The notes beneath the pieces are model-generated. The model ran no database searches and had not been told where the DNA came from. It worked only from the letters and a program-made list of their open reading frames with translations. A stretch of DNA of 64,000 nucleotides from Acinetobacter phage phiAB441: sequence record PV420835.1. One strand, written 5' to 3'. A program made the translations under genes and the position numbers. The first letter of the stretch is position 1; each line of letters begins with the position of its first letter. This document shows positions 1-60,996 of this stretch, one piece after another.

Positions 1-170
1 CCTTAGACAAATAAATACAACTACTTTAGTGTAAAATAATTTAATAAAACACAAAATAATTAAAATTAATTTAAATTAGTTACAATTACACAGAAATAAA
101 CTTAATTATTGACTTGTTACAATTTGATTTATCTTGTTTTAGTGTTATAATTAGTGTTCTTATAAGAAAG

Positions 171-202
171 AGGGATTAGAATGATCGATTGATCTAATCC
201 CT
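171..202. other. Perfect 10-bp inverted repeat agggattaga/tctaatccct with a 12-nt loop containing the atcgat palindrome. Hairpin in the leftmost non-coding region.
   Basis: Read directly. Arms at 171-180 and 193-202. No clean U-tract follows on either strand. Confidence 0.4.
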
Positions 203-499
203 TATATTATAAATAACCTAATAGTGTATATTAGTGTTATAGCACTAACAACTTGTACATACGGTAGTAGACTACAGCTAGCACAAACTATGCTGTTCTT
301 CTTTGTTGTGTTATATTATCTTAAACAGATTGTTTTCTTTTGTTGTTTTCTTAACAGAAAGAGAATAGAATAAGATGTTGTTTTGTTGTTGTGTTATAAT
401 GAACGAAGTGATATAATGTTTGGTGTTGATGTGTTGTTGTTTGCTCCTAAGACTATCGTCTTAGCTTGATACGAGCATTAGATTAATTGGAGATGTATT

Positions 500-670
500 A
501 TGTTAAAAGAAGCTACTTGTTTTTACTACAACGGTGAACCTCACACTATTATTTGTGCAGACCCATTGAATAGAAAATATTGGTGTGCATATGTAGATAT
601 GTATGATATGCAATATCGTTGGTTAGATATGAAGATTGTTGAAGATATTGTAGAAAAGAAACTAAAATGA
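500..670 (+). CDS. Small hypothetical protein (56 aa, Cys-rich). Not in ORF track (<60 aa).
   Basis: ATG at 500 preceded by ggag with 5-nt spacing. Open to tga at 668-670. Tandem TATAAT-like boxes (gttataatg, gatataatg) lie about 80-100 nt upstream. Confidence 0.4.
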   Translation: MLKEATCFYYNGEPHTIICADPLNRKYWCAYVDMYDMQYRWLDMKIVEDIVEKKLK

Positions 671-700
671 CTGATTGTATGGTAATTATGGAGATGTGTT

Positions 701-913
701 ATGTTGTTAGGTAAAGTATTTGTTTGTATTTCTTTATTGTTTATATTTCTAACAGTGTGTTGTATGATTTATTCTGTTTATAATGAGATGTGTTTATCTA
801 GAAAAGAAGAAAAGATATGTAGTTTTGTATATTTGGTTTCTACGATTCTGTTGATCATTTGGTTAGGTATTGGTTTAACATTTACTGGATTAAAAATATG
901 GGATGCAGTGTAG
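701..913 (+). CDS. Small hydrophobic membrane protein (2 predicted TM segments)
   Basis: ORF track. ggag RBS 7 nt upstream. Strongly hydrophobic composition. Confidence 0.5.
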   Translation: MLLGKVFVCISLLFIFLTVCCMIYSVYNEMCLSRKEEKICSFVYLVSTILLIIWLGIGLTFTGLKIWDAV

Positions 914-998
914 GATATTCTTGACTTTTAAAACAAAATGCCGTTGCTTTTGATGGCACCCCCTCCCTTCTGTTAATTTAGCAATTGTAGAGTGTTTT

Positions 999-1208
999 AT
1001 GTTTTATTTAAATTTGTTTTTAACTATTGGATTAATATCTTGTTGTGTTTCTTTAGTGTGTATTGTTATTAATGTATTGTGTTGCTACAACACACCTAAG
1101 ATTATTGAAAAGATTGGTAATGTCGCTATACCGATTAGTTTATTCTTCTTGATTATAATTCTTTGTTTTATAGTTGTTGTGTCATTAATCTCAATATGGA
1201 CTAACTAA
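999..1208 (+). CDS. Small hydrophobic membrane protein (2 predicted TM segments)
   Basis: ORF track. Hydrophobic Cys-rich sequence similar in style to 701..913. Confidence 0.45.
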   Translation: MFYLNLFLTIGLISCCVSLVCIVINVLCCYNTPKIIEKIGNVAIPISLFFLIIILCFIVVVSLISIWTN

Positions 1209-1237
1209 CCAATTAAATCTTGTAAAAATTCTTGAGC

Positions 1238-1260
1238 CACCCTCTCACGCGAGGGTGTTG
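1238..1260 (+). terminator. GC-rich hairpin caccctc-tcacgc-gagggtg followed by ttgt. Weak candidate terminator.
   Basis: 7-bp perfect stem read directly. Poor U-tract. Confidence 0.35.
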
Positions 1261-1644
1261 TAGAAAAATTGGGGGAATTGCAAATTTATTTGAAATGCGT
1301 AAATTTCGGATTTGGTGGTGGAAAAACGATCAACCATAGTTTATCTTTTTGTAGAATGAAAGGTAAAGAAATGTAATTTTTCTTGATTTACAATTATTTC
1401 TATGTTATTCACACGCACGTTCTATTTATACGAAATATGAAATGGTGCATCTCAGTCTTTCAACTGGTGAATATCCTTTGTTTCCTTGCTAGTAATGATA
1501 AAAGACAGTGGTCAATTCACCTAAATAAATGATTTTCTATAGCTATTCATAAAAGATTTAATAAAATAACTAATTAAATTATCTTTATTTTCATGTGTTT
1601 ATGATAATTTTTAGTATTATTTTAAAATTATTTAGAAAAAGTAA

Positions 1645-1673
1645 TTGCAATAAATCTAAAATTTGTTATTATG
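1645..1673 (+). promoter_or_regulatory. Sigma70-like promoter TTGCAA-16-TATTAT inside the 70-bp repeat copy 1. Drives 1720..2049.
   Basis: Hexamers read directly. AT-rich UP-like tract upstream. Second copy at 3903..3931. Confidence 0.5.
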
Positions 1674-1719
1674 GACTCATCGAAAGGCAACAAGCTAAAC
1701 AGCTTAAAGGAAATACGTT

Positions 1720-2049
1720 ATGTCAAACTTTACTATTGATACAAAACACATGAGTCGTAAACAATTAATTAACGTAGGTCGGTTAATTGCTAAAGCTGGG
1801 GAATTAGATTTTCCAATTGACAATGCAATGACTCAAGTAGGCTATAACACAATATATGGGAATACTTACTTATGGTGCGAAGACGTACAATACTCAATCT
1901 TTATCAGTGATTTTGATAGTAAGATTAAAGCTTGTTATTCATGCCCTTATGACGGAGAAGAAACAATTAGAAATTGTTCAAGTGATGAAAGATTAATGAA
2001 TAAGTGGGTAGAGAAACTTATTCAAAAGTCAGAAGCTAAAGACCAGTAA
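1720..2049 (+). CDS. Hypothetical early protein
   Basis: ORF track. RBS aaggaaa upstream. Confidence 0.55.
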   Translation: MSNFTIDTKHMSRKQLINVGRLIAKAGELDFPIDNAMTQVGYNTIYGNTYLWCEDVQYSIFISDFDSKIKACYSCPYDGEETIRNCSSDERLMNKWVEKLIQKSEAKDQ

Positions 2050-2124
2050 TAACTAAACAACCTTGCATTGTATTAATAACAATATGATGCACAATACTAA
2101 ATGATTTAGAGAAGGTGTATAAAG

Positions 2125-2457
2125 ATGAATATTTCTAATATTTACTCAGCAAGATTTGCAACATTTAATGACATTGGCACTATAGTATTGAACGATGGCA
2201 GTGAAAAATACATTAAAAGCATGAGTAATTCTACTGAGTCAATTATTTTAGTGTTCCGTGCTTATGGTAATTATAAAGATTGGTTAAAGTGTAACGGGCT
2301 TAATGATAATTTAAAATCGTGGAAATGTTTTTATAACTTAGTTTTAACGTGTGACTGGAAAAATGAGGCTGACAAAAATATTGCAACAGCTAGAAACATT
2401 TTAGAATGTCATATTAAACACCCGATTTTCTACACTAAAATGATCAATATTAAGTAA
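2125..2457 (+). CDS. Hypothetical early protein
   Basis: ORF track. RBS gagaagg. Preceded by 47-bp repeat copy 1. Confidence 0.55.
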   Translation: MNISNIYSARFATFNDIGTIVLNDGSEKYIKSMSNSTESIILVFRAYGNYKDWLKCNGLNDNLKSWKCFYNLVLTCDWKNEADKNIATARNILECHIKHPIFYTKMINIK

Positions 2458-2468
2458 GGTATGAGAAA

Positions 2469-2612
2469 ATGAAACATTATCAAATCATTCATGATGGCTT
2501 AGTTTATTGTGTAGACGTTTACGCATCATCTAAAAGAGAAGCTATTGCACAATATAGACAACAATGGAATCTTGAAGGAAAACGTATTAACTTGCAATGT
2601 TGGGAAGTTTAA
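2469..2612 (+). CDS. Small hypothetical protein (47 aa). Not in ORF track.
   Basis: ATG 2469 with gaga RBS. In-frame taa at 2610-2612. Confidence 0.3.
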   Translation: MKHYQIIHDGLVYCVDVYASSKREAIAQYRQQWNLEGKRINLQCWEV

Positions 2613-2707
2613 ATATGACATACTCATTAAACAATATGAACAACCGTGCATTGTATTAATAACAATATGATGCACAATACTAAATGAATCTTTTGGAGTA
2701 ATACAGT

Positions 2708-3112
2708 ATGAATACAATTTTAGAAACAAACAAGCTTTACTATTTTGGTGATGTCAATCCAGAATACGGCGGGGTGGTATTTCGTAAACTAGAAAACGGC
2801 AGTATTGATGCTTATGAGATTAATGAGTTTAGTCCAATAAGCTTTTGTAACTTCATTTGTAACTTAATAGTTAATGAAGACTACGAAACTATGGAACAAG
2901 TAGAAGATGCTTTTTATAATGGTGAAATGTCTATAGAAAGTTATAGCGATTTTAAATTTATGAAAAGTATTGATTGGGAGTTTACCAATGAAAGTGACAA
3001 ATCCATGATTGATAAGTTTGTTCGTTATGATTACAATATTTGGACTCTGATTAAATGTTATATTGGTGTATCTAAACACACTAAAATATACACTTATAAC
3101 GGAGTAATGTAA
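2708..3112 (+). CDS. Hypothetical early protein
   Basis: ORF track. RBS ggag. Preceded by 47-bp repeat copy 2. Confidence 0.55.
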   Translation: MNTILETNKLYYFGDVNPEYGGVVFRKLENGSIDAYEINEFSPISFCNFICNLIVNEDYETMEQVEDAFYNGEMSIESYSDFKFMKSIDWEFTNESDKSMIDKFVRYDYNIWTLIKCYIGVSKHTKIYTYNGVM

Positions 3113-3331
3113 TGTTAATCATTAATCGTTACAAATGCCCTATTACTGGTAAAACTTCATATGTGCCCATAAAGTTAATAACATGAAAGTGATTAAAAGC
3201 TACAAGCCATGTGATGAGTCCTTTATTGAAATGTTATCTCAGGGACATAAACAATTTCTTTTGTGCGACGTTCCTGCTTATAGTATGTTATCTAAAATCA
3301 ATATTGTTAAAAGTTAATGTAATCGGAGTAT

Positions 3332-3526
3332 ATGAAAATGATTAGCTTAGTATCAATACATGAAATGACAAATACACCAGATAAAAGAGAAGTACTTGAG
3401 AACCTAATGGACAGTGAAAAGTTAGAAATTATTAAACAATTAACCGATTCTAAGAGCTTTGTTGAAATTCTATATTTTATTGAATCCGCCAATGAGGATT
3501 CTAAATGGTGTCAATCGTACAGATAA
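3332..3526 (+). CDS. Hypothetical small acidic protein
   Basis: ORF track. RBS cggagtatatgaaaatg. The same RBS-start context recurs at 3554. Confidence 0.5.
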   Translation: MKMISLVSIHEMTNTPDKREVLENLMDSEKLEIIKQLTDSKSFVEILYFIESANEDSKWCQSYR

Positions 3527-3553
3527 ATTAAAAATTTTATTAAATCGGAGTAT

Positions 3554-3760
3554 ATGAAAATGATTAAATCGTTCAGTAAAAATGGCAAATATTACTACTG
3601 CAAAACAGATTTAAACAATTGGTCACAATGGGCATGTCGCCACGAAAATGGATTGGAAACATTTGCAAAAGTAAGTGTAGCATCATATAAATTGAAAAGA
3701 CAAAATGTAATTGATGCGATTGATAATGTAGAGAACCGTTATTCAAATGATGAAGTTTAA
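3554..3760 (+). CDS. Hypothetical small protein
   Basis: ORF track. Upstream context aatcggagtatatgaaaatg is identical to that of 3332. Confidence 0.5.
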   Translation: MKMIKSFSKNGKYYYCKTDLNNWSQWACRHENGLETFAKVSVASYKLKRQNVIDAIDNVENRYSNDEV

Positions 3761-3785
3761 TAGTTAAACTTTAGTTTCACCGTGC

Positions 3786-3808
3786 AGCGCCTTCATTGGC
3801 GCTTTTTA
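3786..3808 (+). terminator. Rho-independent terminator agcgcc-ttcatt-ggcgct plus TTTTT
   Basis: 6-bp GC stem plus U-run read directly. Follows the stop of 3554..3760. Confidence 0.65.
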
Positions 3809-3902
3809 TTGTCTGAATAATTAAAAAATAGTATTGCATCTCTTTATTTTCATGTATTTATGATTATTTTTATTATTATTTTAAAATTATTTAAAGAAAG
3901 TC

Positions 3903-3931
3903 TTGCATTGAGTAAGTGAAATTGTTATATT
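3903..3931 (+). promoter_or_regulatory. Sigma70-like promoter TTGCAT-17-TATATT inside the 70-bp repeat copy 2. Drives 4055..4357.
   Basis: Hexamers read directly. Paralogous to 1645..1673. Confidence 0.5.
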
Positions 3932-4587: not shown

Positions 4588-4598
4588 GGAATATAACC

Positions 4599-4763
4599 AT
4601 GCTATTTAAACTTATCTTACTCGTAACAATGAATGGTAACGTATACGCTGATGTAGTAGACTATGATCTAACTAGAGAGGATTGTATTAATCAAATGGTT
4701 TATGTTAATAGTAAGTTAAAGAATGAATCTATAGAGTATATCTGTCAAGGTGAATCAGAATAG
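4599..4763 (+). CDS. Small secreted protein (54 aa, signal-peptide-like N-terminus MLFKLILLVTMNGNVYA). Not in ORF track.
   Basis: ATG 4599 with aagga RBS at 8-nt spacing. Followed directly by a terminator. Confidence 0.45.
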   Translation: MLFKLILLVTMNGNVYADVVDYDLTREDCINQMVYVNSKLKNESIEYICQGESE

Positions 4764-4783
4764 TAACCAACTAAACACACAAT

Positions 4784-4806
4784 GCCCGCTATATGCGGGC
4801 TTTTTA
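4784..4806 (+). terminator. Rho-independent terminator gcccgc-tatat-gcgggc plus TTTTT
   Basis: Read directly. Closes the rightward early block before the convergent leftward operon. Confidence 0.7.
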
Positions 4807-5292
4807 TTGCCTATAGAAAACATATCCTAGAATACTCATAATATCCTTCATTATAACGCCGTATAGCAGCTTTATAGTAATGTTATTGAATGTTAAGCTA
4901 GGGTAGTACCTTAGTGTATTAAAGTGTCTGTAATAAGCTTATATGTGTGTTTAATTGAATGTGTTGTCAGTATTGTTGTTAGCAATGTTTCTATTGTTGT
5001 ATCTCTAAATTAAATATCAAATCTTTTTTGCTTAGAGGATAGTTGTTGAGATGTTTGTTTGTGTGTTTGTTAATAAAGATATAAGAAACAATTTAAATCA
5101 AGTGCGGTGAATCTTAGAAGCTTTGCAGGGATATACCAGTGATGATAAAAAGAAAAGTGTTAATCTTTGAAGCGATATTATACGATATTTTGCTTGACAA
5201 ACCACTTGAAAAATGGTAGACGTCTCTTGGTGTTTAATGGTAGAGTATATAAATAGTCAAATTTTAAACCGTCTACACACTCCACCAACAAA

Positions 5293-6258
5293 TCAAATCA
5301 CTTCAATTTCACCTATCTTAAATTTCAAAGAAGAAACACTGATATACTGAGGAAGATCAATCATCCCACTCTTTACACCATCGAGATTACTTTTGATATT
5401 TTCTAACTTTTCTACCAACATTTTATCTTTATTTTCATCTCTAAAATTTTTTCTTTCAAAAATTTCCGATAAAGATTTTTCTAAGGTGTCAATTCGATTT
5501 TCGAGCTTCTCAATAACACACTCTCTCACGCATGTAAAAGATTTCTTACTGGCGTGTCTGACACCTCGGTTTGAAAAAGACCACGAGTATTTACCATTAA
5601 AGCTAATACCAGACATTATGTCAGTATCGTCTTTAATTAACAAACAAGCAGAATAAATAGCGTTTGCGCTTTCCCTGTCATCCCACTCTTCTTGTGTCAA
5701 CCTACCTTCACTTAAAATAGTGTGCGTATGATTTGATTCCTTTATAAAGAACTCCAAAACATCATCATCTAAACAATCAAACCACTCATCAAAAACCCTT
5801 AAAAACAACTCTCTTTTTTCTTTTACTGTTTTTGTGTGATAATTCCGAATAGAGTGATTCATATTTCTAGGAACAAAACAACATGTGTCCTCAGAATATA
5901 AATTACCATCTCCAAACAAATCTTTATCTTGCTCAAAGATTTTACCATTTTCATCTAAACACATAAAACCGTGTTTAGTTTCAGCCCAAGCAACCCAAGA
6001 ATCATAATTTGAAAACAACTCCGAACAATGTGCATCCTTATAAGCATCAAATCTTTTCTTGTAAGAACCACCTTCAGAACATCTTCCGTACATTGCTGTC
6101 CATTGTGCATAGGGTCTTGTTTTAACCCTCTTACCTCGCTCATCAAAGTAATAACAAAAATTATTCCACTTATCTGAATTTTGATAAATGACATCTCCAT
6201 CATAAACTTTAACAATCACACCCTTGTTTTCTTTTTCAATATAATCTAACTTAATCAT
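5293..6258 (-). CDS. Homing-endonuclease-like protein, AP2/HNH-associated family. Paralog of 47613..48410.
   Basis: Shares the motifs YAQW-AMYGRC and YSEDTC-F-P-N with 47613..48410. A W..M..RC motif is typical of phage AP2-HNH endonucleases. RBS aggagg. Confidence 0.55.
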   Translation of the reverse strand: MIKLDYIEKENKGVIVKVYDGDVIYQNSDKWNNFCYYFDERGKRVKTRPYAQWTAMYGRCSEGGSYKKRFDAYKDAHCSELFSNYDSWVAWAETKHGFMCLDENGKIFEQDKDLFGDGNLYSEDTCCFVPRNMNHSIRNYHTKTVKEKRELFLRVFDEWFDCLDDDVLEFFIKESNHTHTILSEGRLTQEEWDDRESANAIYSACLLIKDDTDIMSGISFNGKYSWSFSNRGVRHASKKSFTCVRECVIEKLENRIDTLEKSLSEIFERKNFRDENKDKMLVEKLENIKSNLDGVKSGMIDLPQYISVSSLKFKIGEIEVI

Positions 6259-12043: not shown

Positions 12044-12072
12044 TTGACATTCACTCTTGACAAGGTTATAGT
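12044..12072 (+). promoter_or_regulatory. Rightward sigma70-like promoter TTGACA-17-TATAGT, with tandem overlapping TTGACA
   Basis: Hexamers read directly. Divergent from the leftward promoter. Confidence 0.55.
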
Positions 12073-12321
12073 GCAAGGACAGGGTTGGGTTGGATATGTT
12101 ATTATGAGTGAAACGAAATAATAATACATTAATGTCAATCTTTAGATTGCTACAATATATTGAATGAGTGAAACGAATGAAATATATTGGGATATAAGAA
12201 TAATATTATAAATATAACACTATAGAATATAACACTTACAATATACTATATGTTTTCTATGCGTAGCATAATATATTATATAATAATATTGTAAAATAAT
12301 ACTTTGGAGAATTAAAAGAAT

Positions 12322-12987
12322 ATGTCAACATTAGAAGATTATCTATCTTTAAGAATACAAGACTGTTACTACGATAGCAATACATACTTCAACAGAGATA
12401 AGAATTTATATCATGTGTATTTGTTTTATTATGATAATGAATTAGTTTATGTTCATTACGGACATGATGGAACAGAAGAAATACATTATACACCAGAATC
12501 ACCATGTCCTAAGTTTAGAAAGATTTACAAAGAGAATAAGACACACCTGATATCACACCATCACCTTACCAAGTTTAGTGTTTTACATGATTGTTTATTT
12601 TATGTTGATTTCCTGATTAGTAAACTTAAACCTAAATACAATAAGAAGATTGAGTTGTTGGATGAGACTGTGTACAACAAACAGATCAGATTTACACATG
12701 CTCCAGATGAAATACCTCATACTAATAAATTAACTTTGTTGTATTTGTTTTGTTTACTTGGTTATCCACTTCAGTTAATATCTGATTACACTGGTGTTGA
12801 TCTTAAAGAATTAAGTAAGATTAAAAACAGAGAAGGAAAATATTCTTATCCTGTGTTTTGTTTTGAATATGTAAGCAAACAAGGATTTCCTGTTGTGGAT
12901 AAAGCATTACTTAATCATTATTGCAATGTTGTGTTTAAGACAGATATTGATTGTATTGAAGAGCTTTATGGTGTTGCTTATTTTTAG
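12322..12987 (+). CDS. Hypothetical protein (His/Tyr-rich)
   Basis: ORF track. ggag RBS. First rightward gene after the divergent promoters. Confidence 0.55.
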   Translation: MSTLEDYLSLRIQDCYYDSNTYFNRDKNLYHVYLFYYDNELVYVHYGHDGTEEIHYTPESPCPKFRKIYKENKTHLISHHHLTKFSVLHDCLFYVDFLISKLKPKYNKKIELLDETVYNKQIRFTHAPDEIPHTNKLTLLYLFCLLGYPLQLISDYTGVDLKELSKIKNREGKYSYPVFCFEYVSKQGFPVVDKALLNHYCNVVFKTDIDCIEELYGVAYF

Positions 12988-13046
12988 CACATATACCAAT
13001 TAAAAATCATAGTCAATAATAATTTTGTAAAGTTATGTAAAAAAGC

Positions 13047-13075
13047 TTGACTAATCTTTAAAAGGTTGTTATTCT
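13047..13075 (+). promoter_or_regulatory. Promoter-like TTGACT-17-TATTCT
   Basis: Read directly, inside the 430-bp non-coding region. Confidence 0.35.
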
Positions 13076-13151
13076 TATCAACATAAAGAAAACAATAAAT
13101 AATAATTTCTGAATGGACTCCTTAATTCAGAAAGGATTCACTTTCCTCCAA

Positions 13152-13217
13152 CATCACTCTCTTATTCTACAAACAATAATAATAAAGACTCTCCTGTAAG
13201 AGAGTGATGTATTTTCT
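13152..13217 (+). other. 12-bp perfect inverted repeat catcactctctt/aagagagtgatg with 34-nt loop, followed by tattttct
   Basis: Read directly. Terminator-like or protein-binding site. Confidence 0.45.
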
Positions 13218-13418
13218 AATATGCGGAAATCAGTATGATGTAGTGAAGTAAGTGCTATAGTAAACTTATGAATCGAGAGTTGGTTAGAATCCAATAATTC
13301 CGCTCCATATTTTAGATTTCACCCATGATCAGATTACGGTGGGAATGAAACGTGTAGTGGTGTCGCTACCATGTAAGCGAATGTGACACATCTTTATTAG
13401 CAACAAATAGGTAAAATA

Positions 13419-13781
13419 TTGAACGAAGCTATTCTATGTTTAGCAATTGCAATATTCAACGAAAGTCGTGGTGAACCAATTAAAGGTCAATATGCTGTAG
13501 CTGAAGTTATTCATAACCGAAGTAGGCATGATGATTTTCCTAAAGGGTATTGTGATGTCGTTAAACAACGAGGTCAGTTTTCTTGGTATAAAAGCTCAAA
13601 AGATTTAAAACCACCTAAGCACGATAAGGATGCTTGGAATGATAGCGTGAAAGTCGCTAACTCCTTTTACACCAATAAAACAAATTATACGAAAGGCGCA
13701 TTATACTTTAATTCTAGTAGATTAGGTGTTCGCTTTAATAAACAATTAAAATGTAAAATTGGAAAGCATGTTTTCTTTTGA
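13419..13781 (+). CDS. SleB-like cell-wall hydrolase (Hydrolase_2 family)
   Basis: N-terminal motif ESRGEPIKGQYAVAEVIHNRS...QRGQFSW matches the SleB/Hydrolase_2 signature, by established knowledge. Confidence 0.65.
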   Translation: MNEAILCLAIAIFNESRGEPIKGQYAVAEVIHNRSRHDDFPKGYCDVVKQRGQFSWYKSSKDLKPPKHDKDAWNDSVKVANSFYTNKTNYTKGALYFNSSRLGVRFNKQLKCKIGKHVFF

Positions 13782-13800
13782 TTACATGCTTTTTTATTTT
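13764..13800 (+). terminator. Intrinsic terminator aagcatg-(14-nt loop)-catgctt plus TTTTATTTT, overlapping the SleB-like gene stop
   Basis: Read directly. Confidence 0.5.
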
Positions 13801-13810
13801 CGAGGTATTT

Positions 13811-14164
13811 ATGGCAGCAAGAAATTTCGATAAGGTTTATGACGCTAAAGTAATTAAAGCTAAGATGAACGCTGATGTTGAGTTAGCAATTAAAATCTTA
13901 CGTGATGGATTAGTGTCAACTACCCTAAATGAAAAAGATAAAATTAAATTAGCTTCAGATTATCTTGGTTGGTTCATCCGTCTAGATAACAAGATTATTC
14001 AAGATGAATTCAATAAAGAAGCTTTAAAACAATCAAAATTAAAAACTCTCTCAATTCAAAACGATTTACATGAAAAAGAGAATGAAGAATTTTTAGAAGA
14101 AACAAAACCTTTAAATCAACATAAATTTAATCCGTATATGAGTGATGACGATAACTATAGTTAG
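13811..14164 (+). CDS. terS: Putative terminase small subunit
   Basis: Sits immediately upstream of terL. Start moved to ATG 13811 (gagg RBS) from ORF-track 13778. No recognisable motif, so the call is by position only. Confidence 0.4.
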   Translation: MAARNFDKVYDAKVIKAKMNADVELAIKILRDGLVSTTLNEKDKIKLASDYLGWFIRLDNKIIQDEFNKEALKQSKLKTLSIQNDLHEKENEEFLEETKPLNQHKFNPYMSDDDNYS

Positions 14165-14174
14165 GAGGTAGAAT

Positions 14175-15977
14175 TTGAGCGCACAATTCAGACCAACCTC
14201 AAAACGACAAGAGTTATTCCTTGCATCAAACAGTTTTCTAACTATATTTGGTGGTGCAGCATCAGGTGGTAAATCGTATACAGGATTAATGAGATTCTTA
14301 AACTACGTTCATGACCCTAACTTTGTTGGTTATGTGTTCCGACAAATTGGTGCGGACATTAAAAAAGAAGGTGGTCTTTTCTGGACTGCTGTTAAGATGT
14401 TTCAGCAATATGATCCTGATGTAACTTACACAACCCAACCGATGGTTATTAAGTTTCCTCATCCTGATCCAGCTAAAAGAAAAAGAAAAGTTAAAGGTGC
14501 AACAATATCATTTACTGGTCTTGATGATCAAGATGGCATGAATGCAATTCAAGGTATTAACATTTCTGCTGCAATGGTGGATGAAGCAACACAAATTGGT
14601 GAAGAAGAATTCTGGTGGTTAATCACTCGTCTTCGTACCGAAGCTAATATGACTCCCAACCTATGGTTAACCTGTAACCCTGATGATCAATCTTTTGTAT
14701 TAAGACAATTTGTACATTGGTGGTTATATCCACGTGGTACTATTGCTGATATTGTCTCAACCAATATCTACGAAAAAGACCTAAAACATATTCAAGTTAA
14801 TGATCGTGTCTTTATTGAATTATACGAAGACGGTGAGTTACTTAAGACTTATGAAACTGGTGGTCATATTACACTTTCTGACAACATCCAATTCTTTAGT
14901 GTTGCTGGAAGTTTATCTGTCCATCGTGGATATGTTGAGAATGGTGTTAGATTGTTTACATCAATTCCAAGATTAACAGAAAATCAAGTAGCTTTTTTAG
15001 TATTAAAAAGAAAAGGGAATGAAGTCTTTAAATCTGAGATGGTTGTTGATGGTCAAGAAGATGTTGGTGGAAGACCAGACATTGAGAAGAATGGTAAACA
15101 ACTTTATTATTTAAACGTTGAGAATAAAGTTCACCTTGCAACATCACTTGATGAGTTGTACAAAGAACTTCCAGAATACAAAGGGCACCCAACAATTGTT
15201 CCAGATACAGTAAGTTTCATCGGAGCAACGTGTAAAGACAACCCAACATATCTTCTTAAAAACCCTGCTTATGAATCTAAACTTCAAAACCAACCGAGAT
15301 TAAAAAGAGAACAACTCTATTATGGTAACTGGTATGCGAAGGAAGAAGGTGCTGGTTACTTCCGAAGAGAGTGGTTATTTGAACCACTAAAACAACCTTT
15401 TCCAGAAGATCAAATTCAATCTCGTGTTCGTTGTTTTGACTTAGCATCTACCGAACCAACAGAAGCAAATCCAAATCCCGACTGGACAGTTGGAGTTTTG
15501 ATTGCTAAAACAAAATCAGGTCTCTATGTAATTGAAGATATGGTTCGATTTAGAAAACGTGCTGGTGAAGTTGAACAATTAATAATTGATATTGTTGAAA
15601 AAGATGTTGACTTATATGGCAGTGATAAATACAAAGGATATCTTCCGATAGACCCTGGGTCTGCTGGAAAAACATCTAAGATTTATTATGCAAAGTTATT
15701 TGCTGAACGTAAAGTTCCAATTAGATTCATTAAAGTTGGTACAAAGAATTCTAAGATGAAACGATTTGAACCATTTTCTGCATCTTCAGAAAACGAATTG
15801 GTTCGTATTGTTAAAGGTGATTGGAATGATGAATTCTTTTATGAGCTAGAAGCATTCGGTGGGAACAATAAGAATGTCCACGATGATATCGTGGACTCGG
15901 TGAGTGACGGATTTAATGTTCTAGCAACTAAGAAAGAACTACCAAAAATTAATGCAAAATTATTAAAAATGTCGTAA
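14175..15977 (+). CDS. terL: Terminase large subunit
   Basis: Walker A GGAASGGKSY and Walker B MVDEAT. Size and position fit. TTG start after taggagg RBS. Confidence 0.9.
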   Translation: MSAQFRPTSKRQELFLASNSFLTIFGGAASGGKSYTGLMRFLNYVHDPNFVGYVFRQIGADIKKEGGLFWTAVKMFQQYDPDVTYTTQPMVIKFPHPDPAKRKRKVKGATISFTGLDDQDGMNAIQGINISAAMVDEATQIGEEEFWWLITRLRTEANMTPNLWLTCNPDDQSFVLRQFVHWWLYPRGTIADIVSTNIYEKDLKHIQVNDRVFIELYEDGELLKTYETGGHITLSDNIQFFSVAGSLSVHRGYVENGVRLFTSIPRLTENQVAFLVLKRKGNEVFKSEMVVDGQEDVGGRPDIEKNGKQLYYLNVENKVHLATSLDELYKELPEYKGHPTIVPDTVSFIGATCKDNPTYLLKNPAYESKLQNQPRLKREQLYYGNWYAKEEGAGYFRREWLFEPLKQPFPEDQIQSRVRCFDLASTEPTEANPNPDWTVGVLIAKTKSGLYVIEDMVRFRKRAGEVEQLIIDIVEKDVDLYGSDKYKGYLPIDPGSAGKTSKIYYAKLFAERKVPIRFIKVGTKNSKMKRFEPFSASSENELVRIVKGDWNDEFFYELEAFGGNNKNVHDDIVDSVSDGFNVLATKKELPKINAKLLKMS

Positions 15978-15986
15978 GAGGGAGAC

Positions 15987-17465
15987 ATGGCAACAACAAG
16001 AAAGAAAAAAGAACCTGTCTTACCTAAAGAGATCGGAACAACAGATAGTGGTCGTTTTGATCCAATGCGATTAGATAGACGTGGCGGTTTACCAAGAGAA
16101 CTTGTATTTCCTCATAGTATTTACACTTATGATGAGATGGCAAAAAACCCTACAATTGCAGCAGCTTTAAATGCTATCTCATTAATTGCTTTACGTGTAC
16201 CACGTTATATTGAACCTTATGATGGCTCAGTTACTCACAAGAAGAGAGCAGAATTTCTTAATGAGTGTTTAGGTGTTACAACCCCTTCAAACGACATGAC
16301 TCATACATTTGATGATTTCATTCGTGAAACTCTATCAATGAATAAATATGGCTTCTGTATCACAGAGAAAGTGTTCCGTGTTAGACGTTTGAAGAATGGT
16401 AGTAAATATGATGATGGTAAAGTTGGTATTAAAAGATTACCAATTCGACCTCAATATTCTATTGAAGATTTTGTATACGATGAAGAAGGTCGTGATTTAC
16501 TAGCAATCAAACAAGCTGTCAATACAAAGAACTTTAAGAAATCTGCTTTATCTTCATTGATTGATGGAAATCTAAAAGTAATTCCTAGAGAAAGCTTCAT
16601 GCTATTTAACGCAGAAGCGACAAATGGTAGCGCTATTAGTATTTCACCTTTAGCTCATGTTTATGAAGTTTGGTCAGAATTAATTAAATATAAAGACCTT
16701 GAGAACATCGCATCATCTAAAAACTTAAACGGTTTACCTGTTCTGTGGATGCCTGCTGAAAACATGGTTGATGATCCAGAAGACCCAGCAAGTGAAGTGT
16801 TTAAAGTATTACGAGATGGTATTAGTAAGATTTCAGTTGGTCAACAAACATCATTAATGCTTCCAAGTGATCGTGAACAAGATTCTGGTGCTGGTGGCAA
16901 GCTTTATGACTTCCAGTTAATGTCTGCATCATCTTCAAACATTACAGCTATTCAGCAAACAATCAAACGGCTTACTGATGAGATTCTTCAATGTTTATCT
17001 GCCGACTGGTTGAAAGATGGTAATGAGATTGATACTGCCAAGACATCTTTAATGATCATGTTAGTTGAGGGAAGAATTAGAGAAATCTTCACTCGTTTAA
17101 ATACCGACCTTATTCCTCATTTGTGGAGATTGAATGGTTGGGATGATACAAAGCTTCCTCAGATTAAATATGGAACATTGAAAGAAGTCAGTATGGCAGA
17201 TTTTGCGAAAGCTATGCAACAACTTAAAGCTACTAAACTAGTTGCTGTCACTCCTAAGAACATTAACTACATTGCTGAGAAGACAGGTTTACCTGAACGT
17301 CTAGATGAGAATTTAACTCAAGATGAATTAAATAAGATTTTAGGCGTGGAAGATTCTGACGACAGTCGATCAGGGGATGGATTAGCAAAAGGAAATGCTG
17401 GAAATGGTACAGCAGATGAAGTTGCTAGTGATGATCGTAGTGCTGCAAACCTAGATAATAAATAA
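15987..17465 (+). CDS. Portal protein
   Basis: 492 aa directly downstream of terL and upstream of the prohead protease. Synteny only. Confidence 0.7.
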   Translation: MATTRKKKEPVLPKEIGTTDSGRFDPMRLDRRGGLPRELVFPHSIYTYDEMAKNPTIAAALNAISLIALRVPRYIEPYDGSVTHKKRAEFLNECLGVTTPSNDMTHTFDDFIRETLSMNKYGFCITEKVFRVRRLKNGSKYDDGKVGIKRLPIRPQYSIEDFVYDEEGRDLLAIKQAVNTKNFKKSALSSLIDGNLKVIPRESFMLFNAEATNGSAISISPLAHVYEVWSELIKYKDLENIASSKNLNGLPVLWMPAENMVDDPEDPASEVFKVLRDGISKISVGQQTSLMLPSDREQDSGAGGKLYDFQLMSASSSNITAIQQTIKRLTDEILQCLSADWLKDGNEIDTAKTSLMIMLVEGRIREIFTRLNTDLIPHLWRLNGWDDTKLPQIKYGTLKEVSMADFAKAMQQLKATKLVAVTPKNINYIAEKTGLPERLDENLTQDELNKILGVEDSDDSRSGDGLAKGNAGNGTADEVASDDRSAANLDNK

Positions 17466-17474
17466 GGAGACTTA

Positions 17475-18920
17475 ATGGCTAAGTACAAAAGAGGGAGTTT
17501 GGCGTTAGCTAGACAAGTCTTTAACACCCCTCAATTAATTGTAGAATCTGATCTACAACGAATCTCTCAATACCTAGTAGATCGTGCAAACGGTGTTGAA
17601 GTCAACGTTATTAATACAAATGATGTTGAGCAAAAAACAGAAAAACAAGAATTACAGTCTCTTCTTGAATTAGCATCTTACGAGACAGAAGAAGAAAAAC
17701 AACGTTATCATCGTAGATTAAATATTACTAATGATGGTAAACGAGGTAATCTTTTCATTGAAGGTGCTTTAGTTGCGAAAGCTGGTGAGATCGATGCTGA
17801 TTGCATGGAGTTAACTTCCTATGAAAAGCTTCTATCAACTTTCCAGATGCAAGTCAAGGAAGGTGTTGAAGAATTAGTTCTACATGTAGACTCAGGCGGT
17901 GGCGCTGCTGCAACGTGTTTTGAGATGGCTAACGAAGTCAAGACTCTAGCTAATGAGAATAATATCAAGATTTATGCTTACATTGACGGAATGGCAGCTA
18001 GTGCAGCTTACGCTTGGACATCTATTGCAGATGAGATTATATCTCGACCAGATAGTGAAGCAGGCTCTATTGGTGTAGTTGTGCAACTTATCAATAATTC
18101 AAAAATGCTTTCTGATATTGGTATTACAAGAAAATTTATTACTTACGGTGATAATAAAGTTCCTTTCGATGATCAAGGAGAGTTTACAGATAAATTCTTA
18201 GAATCGATTCAGAAGAAGGTTAATAAAACAGGTTTAGAATTTAGCAATTTTGTTGCTAAAAACCGAAACATGAATGTTGAAGATGTAATTGCGCTACAAG
18301 CAGAAATCTTTACTTCAGAAGATGCTTTGTCTTTAGGTTTGGTTGATAAGATCATGACTCGCTCAGAGTTTTTTGATAAGTATCTTCCATCAGCCAAAGC
18401 TAGTTCAAATAATCAATATTATTTACAACAAGAGGACATTATGTCAAAAGAAAAAGATGTAACTGTTGACACACAATTGAGTGTTGAGCAATTACAAGAA
18501 CAATTAACAAACTTAAATGTAGAAAAAGAACAACTAACAACTCAAGTTGAAACATTAACTCAACAATTAGTCGACTTTCAATCTACAAAAGAACAGTTAC
18601 AAACACTACAGGCAAATTATGATGCTTTGTTAGGTGAAAAAGAAGCTTCAGATAAAGCTGCTAAATTAGCAACTCGTAAAGCAGCAATTGAAGATGCTAT
18701 TGGTAAAGATAATGAACAAGTAGCTTCTCTATTATCTTCTACTGAACAATTAGAAGATGCAGCTTTTGATATCATTGTTCAAAGCTTATCTACACAACAA
18801 GAGTTAAAGCAAGAAAAATTAAAAGAGAAAGGTAACGAAGGAACTCAAAGTCCATCACAACTTAGTATTGAAGAACAACTTGCTGCAACAGCAAAAAAAA
18901 TGACAAAGCAGTCTGCTTAA
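17475..18920 (+). CDS. Prohead protease (S49/ClpP-like) fused to a scaffold-like C-terminal coiled coil
   Basis: HVDSGGG and DGMAASAAY serine-protease motifs. C-terminal 160 aa are Q/E/L-rich heptads. Confidence 0.75.
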   Translation: MAKYKRGSLALARQVFNTPQLIVESDLQRISQYLVDRANGVEVNVINTNDVEQKTEKQELQSLLELASYETEEEKQRYHRRLNITNDGKRGNLFIEGALVAKAGEIDADCMELTSYEKLLSTFQMQVKEGVEELVLHVDSGGGAAATCFEMANEVKTLANENNIKIYAYIDGMAASAAYAWTSIADEIISRPDSEAGSIGVVVQLINNSKMLSDIGITRKFITYGDNKVPFDDQGEFTDKFLESIQKKVNKTGLEFSNFVAKNRNMNVEDVIALQAEIFTSEDALSLGLVDKIMTRSEFFDKYLPSAKASSNNQYYLQQEDIMSKEKDVTVDTQLSVEQLQEQLTNLNVEKEQLTTQVETLTQQLVDFQSTKEQLQTLQANYDALLGEKEASDKAAKLATRKAAIEDAIGKDNEQVASLLSSTEQLEDAAFDIIVQSLSTQQELKQEKLKEKGNEGTQSPSQLSIEEQLAATAKKMTKQSA

Positions 18921-47448: not shown

Positions 47449-47619
47449 ATGAATTTTACAGAATATTTAAATTTAATTAAAGAGATTTTAAATGATAATG
47501 GTGTTGTGTTATCAACAATGGAAGAACATCATCAGGAAGAGTTGATTAAGAAGTTTAAGAAATGTTTTAAAGATGGTGAGGATGTTGATGAGGCAATAGA
47601 CAGAGTTATGGGGTGGTGA
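47449..47619 (+). CDS. Small acidic protein (56 aa). Not in ORF track.
   Basis: ATG 47449 with ggagg RBS at 6-nt spacing. Its stop overlaps the GTG start of the HEG. Confidence 0.45.
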   Translation: MNFTEYLNLIKEILNDNGVVLSTMEEHHQEELIKKFKKCFKDGEDVDEAIDRVMGW

Positions 47620-48410
47620 ATGTGAAGTATATAAACAAAATTGAATATAAAAACTGTATAGGTAAAGTTTTTGCTTCAAAATACTATGGCTTATTTAAGG
47701 TTATTAGCTATCATAATAGGTCTAAGGTTGAAATTGAGTTTATTGAAACTGGTTATAGGAAATTTTGCGGATTATCAAATATAAGAGTTGGTGAAATAAG
47801 AGACCCTTACTTTAAATCACTTTGTGGTGTTGGTGTTGTGGGTGTAAAGTATGACACGCGTTACAAAAATGAGAGCGGTAAGAATGCAATGGTTAAGCAA
47901 TATAATATTTGGAGTCATATGATAAAAAGATGTTACTCTGAGAAAAGCGAAGACAAGGATAAAACATACAAAGACTGCACTGTTTCAGAAAACTTTAAAC
48001 ACTACGAATACTTTTATGAATGGTGCAATAGACAGATTGGTTTTAATAACGAAGGTTGGCAACTTGATAAAGATTTATTAGTGAAAGGTAACAAGATTTA
48101 TTCTGAGGACACTTGTGTATTTCTACCGCAAGAATTGAATAACTTGTTAACTAAAAGGTCTAATAATAGAGGTGAATTTCCAATTGGTGTATGTTATAGA
48201 AAACGAGAAGGTAAATATTCATCAGCGTTAAGTTTAAACAAAGGAAACCCTACCACACTAGGATATTACAACACACCTGAAGAAGCCTTCTATGCTTACA
48301 AGAAAGCTAAAGAATCATTTATCAAAGAACAGGCTTACAAATGGAAAGATAAAATCGATCCTAGAGCTTTTGAAGCTTTGATGAATTATAGAGTTGAAAT
48401 TACAGATTGA
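47613..48410 (+). CDS. AP2-domain HNH-family homing-endonuclease-like protein. Paralog of 5293..6258.
   Basis: WSHMIKRC motif and C-terminal AP2-like LGYYNTPEEAFYAYKKA. GTG start. Confidence 0.6.
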   Translation: MVNVKYINKIEYKNCIGKVFASKYYGLFKVISYHNRSKVEIEFIETGYRKFCGLSNIRVGEIRDPYFKSLCGVGVVGVKYDTRYKNESGKNAMVKQYNIWSHMIKRCYSEKSEDKDKTYKDCTVSENFKHYEYFYEWCNRQIGFNNEGWQLDKDLLVKGNKIYSEDTCVFLPQELNNLLTKRSNNRGEFPIGVCYRKREGKYSSALSLNKGNPTTLGYYNTPEEAFYAYKKAKESFIKEQAYKWKDKIDPRAFEALMNYRVEITD

Positions 48411-60462: not shown

Positions 60463-60996
60463 GTGACTGAAGAGTGGAGAGATGTTGTTGGATACGAAGA
60501 ATATTTTATGATAAGTTCTTTTGGTAATGTATTTTCAAAAAGAACAAATAAGATATTAAAACAGAATACAACAGACAGAGGTTATAAGACAGTAGCAACA
60601 AAAATTGGTGGAAGAAGTGGAAAAAATTTGTGCTTTAAAATTCACAGATTAGTTGCGGAAGCGTTTATAGAAAATTTTGAAAATAAGCCTTATGTTAATC
60701 ACATTAATTCAAAAAGAAATGATAACCGTGTTGAAAACTTGGAGTGGTGTACCGCAAAAGAGAACTTTGATCATGGTCTTTCATTTGGAAACATTAAAAA
60801 CAACCAACTTTCAAAAAGTAGTTTCGTTGGAAGGAAGTTAAAAGATGATGATGTTATTAACATTCGAAATAATTATGTGAAAGGTTGTCATAAAAACGGA
60901 CTAAGAGCTTTAGCTAGAAAATACGGTGTTAATAAAAATACCATAAAAGCAGTTGTTAGCAGTGAGACATATAAAGATATAGGAGAAAGAGAGTGA
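60463..60996 (+). CDS. HNH_3 / NUMOD4-type homing endonuclease (I-HmuI-like family)
   Basis: WRDVVGYEEYFMISSFGNVFS (NUMOD4-like). HRLVAEAF...NHINSKRNDNRVENLEW (HNH_3). GTG start after aggag. Confidence 0.7.
   Translation: MTEEWRDVVGYEEYFMISSFGNVFSKRTNKILKQNTTDRGYKTVATKIGGRSGKNLCFKIHRLVAEAFIENFENKPYVNHINSKRNDNRVENLEWCTAKENFDHGLSFGNIKNNQLSKSSFVGRKLKDDDVINIRNNYVKGCHKNGLRALARKYGVNKNTIKAVVSSETYKDIGERE

Follow-up and report, generated by a model that had tools for sequence, protein, structure and literature searches.

What does a phage keep in the largest stretch of its structural-gene block that carries no open reading frame? The question is raised here by positions 12988-13418 of a 64,000-nucleotide (nt) stretch of Acinetobacter phage phiAB441 (record PV420835.1), called the window throughout and taken as the reference for all coordinates, in which the gap holds no open reading frame (ORF) of at least 60 amino acids (aa) on either strand. 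A first-pass annotation had described the gap as the longest non-coding one in the morphogenesis half, which is true of the structural block, while in the window as a whole it ranks only fifth; and it had offered two readings, a site at which packaging begins (pac or cos) or a non-coding RNA with a transfer RNA (tRNA)-like T-arm. All the sequence elements that it listed are present, at or within one base of the positions given for them. When the gap is compared with its counterparts in related phages, two discrete cassettes stand out, termed here modules A and B, which are kept in the window and recur elsewhere in other orders. From this comparison it is highly probable that the locus encodes structured RNAs, and we consider that it is probably a phage small-RNA (tRNA-island) locus and not a packaging site. 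The RNA half of the earlier proposal is borne out by the comparison, and more strongly than had been proposed.

An 85-nt RNA family in the gap

The pairing of gcggaaa (13223) with ttccgc (13298), followed by tcca, which had been noticed in the first pass, is present and forms the acceptor stem of a larger fold. What had been suspected of being a non-coding RNA is a conserved 85-nt family with covarying helices, adjoined by a second structured RNA. The features of module A are as follows.

13223-13307, + strand: module A, a tRNA-like RNA of 85 nt, recognised by a covariance model and covarying helices
13223-13228 / 13298-13303, + strand: acceptor stem (module positions 1-6 / 76-81)
13229-13231 / 13237-13239, + strand: mini hairpin of 3 base pairs (bp) (positions 7-9 / 15-17)
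13248-13253 / 13264-13269, + strand: central stem of 6 bp (positions 26-31 / 42-47), closing a 10-nt loop
13254-13263, + strand: central loop of 10 nt, G-CUAUAG-UAA, with a self-complementary hexamer at 13255-13260
13279-13283 / 13291-13295, + strand: T-like hairpin of 5 bp (positions 57-61 / 69-73), followed by AA
13304-13307, + strand: encoded 3' tail UCCA

The relatively GC-rich segment reported earlier (13222-13380) has a GC fraction of 0.396, compared with 0.256 in 12988-13221 and 0.329 in the whole window. A covariance model built from nine copies finds module A in the window, in phages B9, Ab5, MD-2021a (two), BS46, Phab24 and Ab3, and in twelve contigs from IMG/VR or metagenomes, scoring 82-110 bits for the 18 complete copies and 66 bits for a copy cut by a contig end, whereas the same search finds none in TaPaz or at loci L008-L012 (L002 denotes the Ab3-TPeters record, L003 BS46 and L004 Phab24, the further L numbers being related phage, IMG/VR or metagenome contigs). 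All 18 complete copies, which comprise 14 distinct sequences, are exactly 85 nt long; the similarity starts at G1 and ends after the CCA, and the flanks cannot be aligned between contexts. These contexts vary widely. Module A lies about 6 nt after a tRNA-Arg-type 3' end in L014, L016, L018 and L021, of which ARAGORN calls the tRNA-Arg only in L014; it lies 17 nt from tRNA-Ser in L022; its end precedes the hydrolase start codon by 15-17 nt in the BS46-type phages; and it stands beside HNH endonuclease genes, away from both hydrolase and terminase, in L014, L019 and L020.

In the 14 sequences 96% of the cells of the fold are paired and 10 of its 23 pairs have changed on both sides, against 33-44% paired in controls with slid partners, the structure having been derived from the same sequences on which the pairs were counted. 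Compensatory changes occur in four helices, three of which (acceptor stem, mini hairpin and central stem) also appear in an unbiased RNAalifold prediction. Since the helices contain 38 G-U cells and only 1 C-A cell, the RNA strand is the + strand. The family is also conserved over a considerable distance: L017 and L024 share the gene order of the window at 38-54% aa identity in the large terminase subunit (terL) and about 46% in the portal protein; despite this divergence of terL and portal, the copies of module A in L024 and the window have an identity of 78%. Within module A, conservation is highest at the acceptor end (GCGGA...UCCGC-U-CCA), in the linkers GUAGUGAAG and UGAAUCGAGAG and in the loop frame (G-NNNNNN-UAA). 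Two other pairings were rejected. An acceptor stem of 8 bp, of the 8/5 type of tRNA-Sec, fails at the 8:74 pair in subtype 3 and leaves it unpaired in 6 of 14 sequences, and the 7-9 / 15-17 hairpin was adopted instead; an internal pairing of UAGU (19-22) with ACUA (33-36) is not kept in subtype 2 or L024.

Module A belongs to no family in the databases consulted. Rfam 15 gives no match in the window at gathering thresholds, a search that covers ROOL, GOLLD, YrlA/Y RNA, T-box, ribozymes and riboswitches, and at relaxed E-values the gap yields only chance-level matches to eukaryotic snoRNA and miRNA models. Among the related loci, ten searched at gathering and three at E-value thresholds, Rfam reports only tRNAs, plus a group I intron below threshold. 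Likewise, module A was not found in 185,579 bacterial and archaeal genomes by exact-motif scans, which may miss divergent members; the 46 pattern matches are chance hits with a best model score of 18.9 bits, and a wider search anchored on the acceptor ends returned only copies already known. The elements of the gap are also absent from the genome papers on TaPaz and Phab24, in which ARAGORN and, in one, tRNAscan-SE were used and nothing is mentioned at the gap, as they are from the literature reached by targeted full-text searches.

Module A and the tRNA fold

How far is module A a tRNA? Its acceptor end is of tRNA type: a helix of 6 bp, each invariant or covarying, with A7 opposite A75, is followed by an encoded U-CCA, found after the helix in 17 of the 18 complete copies, the Ab3 copy having A at position 81. 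The arm in the anticodon position has a covarying stem, but its loop is 10 nt long in all 14 variants, not 7, and lacks the U33/R37 frame. The D arm is reduced, positions 10-13 / 22-25 being unpaired by inspection and the 3-bp hairpin at 7-9 / 15-17 alone being supported; nor is there a G19:C56 pair. In the T position, subtypes 1 and 2 carry the 7-nt loops UUAGAAU and UUUGAAU on a 5-bp stem without C56, whereas subtype 3 has UCAGA-GCAUA-UCUGA, a 5-nt loop on a stem that covaries (UUAGA/UCUAA in L014). Hence the T-stem-loop likeness that had been reported for GGTTAGAATCC at 13282 is real in the copy of the window, but it is replaced in subtype 3 and is no property of the family.

The gene finders agree with the earlier view that this is no standard tRNA. 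ARAGORN makes no call at module A with default settings, with introns allowed or in the mode for transfer-messenger RNA (tmRNA), and the Rfam tRNA model RF00005 has no match in 12900-13500 even at E <= 10. A permissive ARAGORN run, as the first-pass annotation had advised, reports 'tRNA-???(atag)' with an 8-nt loop, and this only at an 80% score threshold. Judged by these features, module A is not a tRNA and would be unable to decode. With filters off, its model matches real tRNAs weakly (10-22 bits), which would fit descent from a tRNA. The best match in T4 is tRNA-Gly at 22.5 bits and in L083 it is tRNA-Met at 15 bits; tRNA-Gly would therefore be only one possible parent, and the identity of the parent tRNA cannot be recovered. 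A further tRNA-like remnant lies at about 2650-2790 in Phab24 (L004), with a good T arm GTTGGTTCGAGTCCAAC; ARAGORN finds it only when relaxed, and then calls it either a tRNA-Phe that carries an insert of 42 nt or a tRNA of undetermined type.

It might be asked, then, whether both modules are simply decaying pseudogenes from a lost tRNA array, without a function of their own. The window has no tRNA gene anywhere in its 64 kb (ARAGORN, default settings), while the homologous gap in relatives holds true tRNA arrays by the same program: Tyr and Leu in BS46, Asn, Pro and Ser in Ab3-TPeters, six tRNAs in L008, and up to six in more distant IMG/VR relatives, the length of the gap ranging from 400 nt (TaPaz) to 1,582 nt (Ab3). 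The sub-threshold ARAGORN call, the weak tRNA scores, the lack of module A in TaPaz and the damaged copy in Ab3 would all suit such decay. What decay would not lead one to expect is that the 85-nt length and the helices are kept by compensatory changes in phages with terminase and portal proteins as little as 38-54% identical, nor that the parts foreign to tRNA, the 10-nt loop and the two linkers, are the most conserved of module A. Moreover, module A coexists with a full tRNA array in L022 and module B with a 21-tRNA array in L083, which implies that the modules are not what is left when tRNAs are lost. We regard the pseudogene explanation as improbable.

A palindromic loop and a predicted dimer

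The central loop of module A shows a second kind of covariation. At positions 33-38 most copies have ACUAGU, L017 and L024 have CUUAAG, and CUAUAG is peculiar to the window. These three hexamers are self-complementary in the same register, and the bases on either side, G32 and U39, could extend them by G-U pairs; with such ends counted, the octamer 13254-13261 of the window is self-complementary. All three symmetric pairs of the loop change on both sides, and 97.6% of the cells pair. Since adjacent bases cannot pair within one loop, and since the palindrome is centred at 35.5 and the stem dyad at 36.5, pairing between two molecules is the natural reading. Nearest-neighbour estimates put the self-duplex of the loop at -8.6 to -9.2 kcal/mol and favour the predicted dimer over two monomers by 10-11 kcal/mol; the AAUAGU variant of L016 and L018 loses the predicted self-duplex. 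A loop that switches between palindromes is a mark of RNAs that form symmetric kissing-loop homodimers, and it is found in module A. The same reasoning was applied to OLE and GOLLD, the symmetric kissing loops of which were inferred from switching palindromes and confirmed by cryo-electron microscopy (Kretsch et al., PMC12286853). Dimerisation of module A through its loop, as modelled here, remains a tentative proposal to which we give a little less than an even chance.

Could the palindromes and hairpins act instead at the level of DNA, as the target of a homing endonuclease, a recombination site or a dyad bound by a protein? HNH genes flank module A in L014, L019 and L020 and occur in the window, and the cassettes are clearly mobile. 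Furthermore, ACTAGT and CTTAAG, which are the loop palindromes of module A in other phages, are under-represented across the window (3 occurrences each, against about 21.5 expected from base composition), as is CTAG (110 against 191). Yet the excess of G-U over C-A cells in the helices is the signature of an RNA on one strand, and a DNA-binding protein would conserve the sequence of the hexamer and not merely its self-complementarity. Similarly, the offset between palindrome and stem dyad does not make one extended DNA cruciform, and module A ends in an acceptor stem plus CCA. An action as DNA is, in our estimation, very improbable.

Module B

Module A is followed by a second structured RNA with two covarying helices.

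13314-13395, + strand: module B
13317-13325 with 13340-13343 and 13346-13350, + strand: helix 1, with an AA bulge and a loop containing UGAUCA
13360-13366 / 13383-13389, + strand: 3' hairpin, closing a 16-nt loop
13367-13382, + strand: invariant 16-nt loop UACCAUGUAAGCGAAU, unchanged across copies

The two helices are 93.7% paired, with 7 pairs changed on both sides, and the module B model gives 77-109 bits to close copies and 34-38 bits to L082 and L083. Helix 1 replaces CCCA/UGGG in the window by CUCUUG/CAAGAG in L017 and L024, and five different 3' stems (GUGUCG, GUAUCA, CCU, CACUU and GGUUUU) surround the same loop. An invariant loop on a freely varying stem is the pattern expected of a binding site for a protein or an RNA. 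An H-type pseudoknot of GUAG with CUAC is invariant in close relatives and broken in L082 and L083 (GCAG), and the simple hairpin was kept. Within the loop, at 13371-13376, a start codon is followed directly by a stop, as AUG-UAA in the window; BS46 and Phab24 have AUG-UGA, a single substitution by which the stop is retained, and the arrangement may be coincidence.

Module B, like module A, travels with tRNA genes. It follows tRNA-Asn directly in Ab3 and tRNA-Ser by 14 nt in L083, where it is preceded by an array of 21 tRNAs and followed by a strong terminator and then a cell-wall hydrolase gene. In L017 it stands directly before module A, in the window after module A, and in BS46 and Phab24 it is the first element of the array. 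The Ab3-TPeters record (L002, 2405-2572) places a short annotated coding sequence (CDS) over tRNA-Asn and module B, among neighbouring short hypothetical CDSs; it is very likely spurious. The relatives with longer gaps contain several hundred further conserved non-coding bases between the tRNAs and module A (BS46, L003, ~3250-3560; Ab3, L002, ~2870-3660; L024, ~280-690), which have no Rfam match and show by eye apparent compensatory changes, for example GGCATT...AATGTC and GGTATT...AATACC. These stretches may be additional or larger structured RNAs.

The upstream region and the late genes

The part of the gap ahead of module A contains promoter-like and terminator-like elements.

13047-13075, + strand: promoter-like site of the sigma-70 type, TTGACT at 13047, a 17-nt spacer and TATTCT at 13070 (9/12 matches)
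13108-13114 / 13125-13131, + strand: short hairpin tctgaat/attcaga, in the leader
13151-13217, + strand: long hairpin with a 15-bp stem (13151-13165 / 13196-13210) and the following UAUUUUCU, terminator-like

The promoter-like site, present where it had been reported, has TG two bases upstream of TATTCT and an A/T-rich block upstream that is conserved in the group. As a match to the consensus it does not exceed chance, 15 such sites being found where 14.0 +/- 4.4 are expected; yet the -35, the -10 and the upstream A/T-rich block stand at the same place in eight phages, with hexamers nearer to the consensus (TTGACA and TATAGT) in BS46 and Phab24. Elsewhere in the window, a near-consensus TTGACA-17-TATAGT (11/12) occurs at 12044-12072, in a divergent region of 324 nt that separates the leftward early genes from the first rightward ORF.

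The two hairpins of the first-pass annotation fare differently. The short one is present, one base from where it was implied, and is not conserved, being deleted in BS46 and Phab24 and altered in TaPaz. A leader peptide encoded by a 28-codon ORF from 13113 was dropped, its start being deleted in BS46 and Phab24. The perfect 12-bp inverted repeat catcactctctt/aagagagtgatg is found at 13152-13163 / 13198-13209 and extends to the 15-bp stem of the long hairpin, which folds at -20.5 kcal/mol, against -7.0 +/- 2.4 for shuffled sequences (z = -5.6; none of 200 shuffles as good). It contains an inner alternative hairpin (13188-13205), which a terminator scan selects together with GATGTATTTT; the outer 15-bp stem stops at 13210 and is followed by TATTTTCT. 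The arrangement of an intrinsic terminator, a GC-containing stem directly before a U-tract, is thus found at 13151-13217. In BS46 and Phab24 the stem changes in compensation from CAU/AUG to CAC/GUG, and all 198 nt of 13025-13222 are identical in B9, Ab5 and MD-2021a, as are the first 193 of them in Ab3. Taken together, conservation and compensatory changes place the long hairpin and the module A segment well beyond chance on sequence grounds. We read 13025-13222 as a candidate promoter followed by a terminator-like or processing hairpin, and 13151-13217 itself looks like an intrinsic terminator or processing hairpin that would close a leader of about 130 nt.

The question then is whether the whole gap might be explained in these terms. 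The genes on either side are the following.

12322-12987, + strand: ORF of 221 aa without a family match, bordering the gap on the left
13419-13781, + strand: cell-wall hydrolase (Pfam Hydrolase_2), bordering the gap on the right
13778-14164, + strand: ORF of 128 aa after the hydrolase gene, without a Pfam or PHROG match
14175-15977, + strand: terL, uninterrupted in the window and followed by the portal gene on the + strand

The phage that carries these genes is an Acinetobacter baumannii myophage of the vB_AbaM_B9 / TaPaz / BS46 / Phab24 group. Over 12300-14200 its identity is 96.8% with phages Ab5 and Ab7 and 94.6% with B9; in the annotation of Ab5, the leftward early genes end, and the rightward structural block begins, at the point of the gap. 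The terL gene may be interrupted in relatives: that of TaPaz reportedly contains an intein (PMC8228797), and in the environmental relative L024 a group I intron model matches inside the terL homologue (3587-3858; 49.1 bits, against a gathering score of 50).

On a purely cis-regulatory explanation, the gap would serve the late operon through a promoter, a leader and a terminator under antitermination, as in lambda PR'-tR', with modules A and B as parts of the leader that would act in cis on endolysin and terminase. The promoter-like site, the conserved hairpin with its U-tract, and hydrolase, terL and portal on one strand are in keeping with this, as are a leader that is 100% identical among five phages, the short distance from module A to the hydrolase start codon in the BS46-type phages and the terminator between module B and the hydrolase gene in L083. 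Leader structures, however, would hardly switch their order, A-B in the window and B-A in L017, nor be parted by tRNAs and hundreds of bases, as A and B are in BS46 and Ab3, and module A occurs in unrelated HNH neighbourhoods far from hydrolase and terminase (L014, L019, L020). The sharp borders of the cassettes and the encoded CCA fit a processed RNA acting in trans. For the gap as a whole we hold the cis-regulatory explanation to be quite unlikely; for the promoter and hairpin part it probably holds.

Is the gap a packaging site?

Many phages have their pac or cos site in the terminase genes or close to them, and the gap, which is upstream of terL and contains inverted repeats, was a natural candidate for the place where terminase starts packaging. 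The genome ends of the closest relative point elsewhere. In the Ab5 record positions 1-3864 and 92738-96601 are identical, an exact direct terminal repeat of 3,864 bp, and the equivalent of the gap (17,236-17,667) lies 13.4 kb from its inner edge, as far as the end determination by the depositors can be relied upon. Parts of this repeat match the window at 376-483 and 4811-5270, which puts the termini about 8 kb to the left of the gap, near the left of the window. The largest ORF-free stretch of the window, 705 nt at 4588-5292, overlaps the homologue of the right edge of the repeat (Ab5 3443-3911 corresponding to 4811-5270); by its position, it would be more likely than 12988-13418 to hold a genome terminus or the boundary of a repeat.

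Nor are the conserved elements tied to packaging genes. Module A is away from terminase in L013-L015, L019 and L020, and its placing with respect to terL varies with the length of the array; its conservation is of RNA type, with G-U pairs, strand asymmetry and a CCA end. The terS label given earlier to the ORF at 13778-14164 finds no backing, as that ORF matches neither Pfam nor PHROG. The packaging-site reading is therefore not supported, and we regard it as extremely improbable.

A probable small-RNA locus within a tRNA island

The account that we prefer is that of a small-RNA locus. A promoter of the sigma-70 type would initiate a leader of about 130 nt, which would run to the conserved hairpin and U-tract, and two independent RNA cassettes would follow on the strand of the late lysis and packaging genes, to be transcribed with, or in place of, a tRNA array. 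Module A would descend from a tRNA, of which it would keep the GC-rich acceptor helix, a coaxial hairpin in the T position, the discriminator U and the encoded CCA, while the decoding features (7-nt loop, U33/R37 frame, full D arm and G19:C56) would have been lost. Because these maturation features are kept, the transcript could be cut by RNase P at G1 and trimmed to the CCA; a tRNA-type maturation is, on such grounds, reasonably likely. The mature RNA may be a symmetric homodimer, joined by a kissing loop or as an extended duplex with two AA bulges, a structure suggested by the maintenance of a self-complementary loop of 6-8 nt through multi-base replacements. Module B would be a second stable RNA, offering its invariant 16-nt loop to a protein or RNA partner.

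Both modules would be accessory cargo of the tRNA island, shuffled among the tRNA genes, probably by way of nearby homing endonucleases. Homologues of the HNH genes of the window flank module A in L014, L019 and L020, and their position beside it suggests that endonucleases drive the shuffling. The window itself has three such genes, at 47613-48410, 5293-6258 (- strand) and 60463-60996, one with an AP2 domain and one with NUMOD4. As to function, the likeliest role would be to manipulate the RNA or translation machinery of the host or to act as a decoy for tRNA-directed defence, though in absolute terms we hold such a role to be unlikely.

Several points weigh against this account. Transcription, processing and stability of the modules are all inferred from sequence, and the functional role is a guess. 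The hairpin and U-tract ahead of module A should stop part of the transcription, and modules A and B would then need read-through or processing. The 14 sequences of module A fall into three or four clades, with few independent events per covarying pair, and a shuffle control overstates significance for related sequences. The loop shows only three palindromic haplotypes, AAUAGU in L016 and L018 breaks the palindrome, and a kissing helix would be A/U-rich and weak. Finally, the absence of module A from TaPaz and the broken first acceptor pair of the Ab3 copy mean that it is dispensable at least in some phage backgrounds.

Should the account be correct, a dimeric module A could, as a tRNA mimic, titrate or mislead a host factor that binds tRNA (a synthetase, a translation factor, or a tRNA-directed defence such as an anticodon nuclease), or it could build an assembly of RNA only. 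It is conceivable, if somewhat doubtful, that module A founds a new class of phage small RNAs, derived from tRNA, matured by the host and symmetrically dimeric through a self-complementary loop that has taken the place of the anticodon loop, with module B as a second new RNA. The prediction for module A is in any case explicit, namely tRNA-like maturation of the ends and dimerisation via a covarying palindromic loop, and nature provides the controls: TaPaz without module A, Ab3 with a damaged copy, and the window with a palindrome different from those of its nearest relatives. Neither ARAGORN with its default settings nor Rfam detects the locus, and the records are blank at this point or, in a single instance, carry a short CDS over module B that is very likely spurious. 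The phages concerned infect a priority pathogen and are under development for therapy.

Comparison with known systems

For structure, a first comparison is with the canonical tRNA, and by the acceptor end with tRNA-Gly in particular. Module A shares with it the cloverleaf topology, the GC-rich acceptor helix GCGGA/UCCGC, the discriminator U and the encoded CCA, and its spacing and strand match those of neighbouring tRNAs; it differs in the two unpaired A's between T stem and acceptor stem. In tRNA numbering, its G1:C72, C2:G71, G3:C70 and U73 make up what we take to be the acceptor identity set of bacterial GlyRS. The tRNA-like domain of tmRNA likewise combines an acceptor stem and a T arm with an encoded CCA and lacks a regular stem in its D region, but module A has G:C and not G3:U70 at position 3, no mRNA-like part and no pseudoknots, and a search of its region gave no tmRNA by ARAGORN, even relaxed, or by Rfam.

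For the loop, the dimerisation initiation site (DIS) of human immunodeficiency virus 1 offers a parallel. It too has a 6-nt palindrome in a hairpin loop with unpaired purines flanking (here G-[hexamer]-UAA), and its natural variants carry different palindromes. Unlike the A/U-rich, 10-nt loop of module A, which sits within a tRNA-like fold and is only predicted to dimerise, the DIS is GC-rich with a 9-nt loop. ROOL, GOLLD and OLE are similar in that the loop palindromes of OLE and GOLLD switch between palindromes (PMC12286853), and different in their size of 500-800+ nt and their many pseudoknots, the oligomerisation of module A being a prediction; neither the window nor the related loci have an Rfam match to any of the three. 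ROOL and GOLLD occur in phages and prophages, often near tRNA islands, have no known function and form homo-oligomers via kissing loops.

For the upstream region the comparison is with lambda, in which the late promoter PR' is followed by the 6S leader, the tR' terminator, and then the lysis genes and terminase. Common to both are a promoter of constitutive appearance, a short leader closed by a terminator, lysis genes and terminase; the gap differs in that no Q-like antiterminator or qut site was identified and that two RNA genes stand between terminator and first lysis gene.

The closest comparison in genomic arrangement is with T4. Its RNAC (species 1) and RNAD (species 2) are non-tRNA RNAs at the end of a tRNA array and on the same strand, in the order tRNA-Arg, rnaD, rnaC; rnaC has a T-arm-like hairpin CCGGGTTCGAATCCCGG in its 3' part, as module A has; and both arrays include homing endonuclease genes (segB in T4, HNH genes here). 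The roles of RNAC and RNAD are still unknown (PMC3014915, PMC9697503). The agreement with modules A and B is one of genomic arrangement and strand: the sequences are not similar, the module A model scores only 7 bits over rnaC (E = 1.7), and the T4 RNAs are 139 and 119 nt long, against 85 and ~80 nt for modules A and B. We know of no description of a self-complementary loop in RNAC or RNAD, nor, to our knowledge, has any function been found for the small RNAs of the T4 tRNA region in fifty years. Phage tRNA islands are known to hold more than tRNAs, and ROOL and GOLLD have recently emerged as self-assembling RNA cages of unknown purpose; to the genomic class of these and of the T4 small RNAs, modules A and B add two short and tractable members. 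Our best guess, by analogy, is that they are stable RNAs matured like tRNAs and comparable to T4 RNAC and RNAD.

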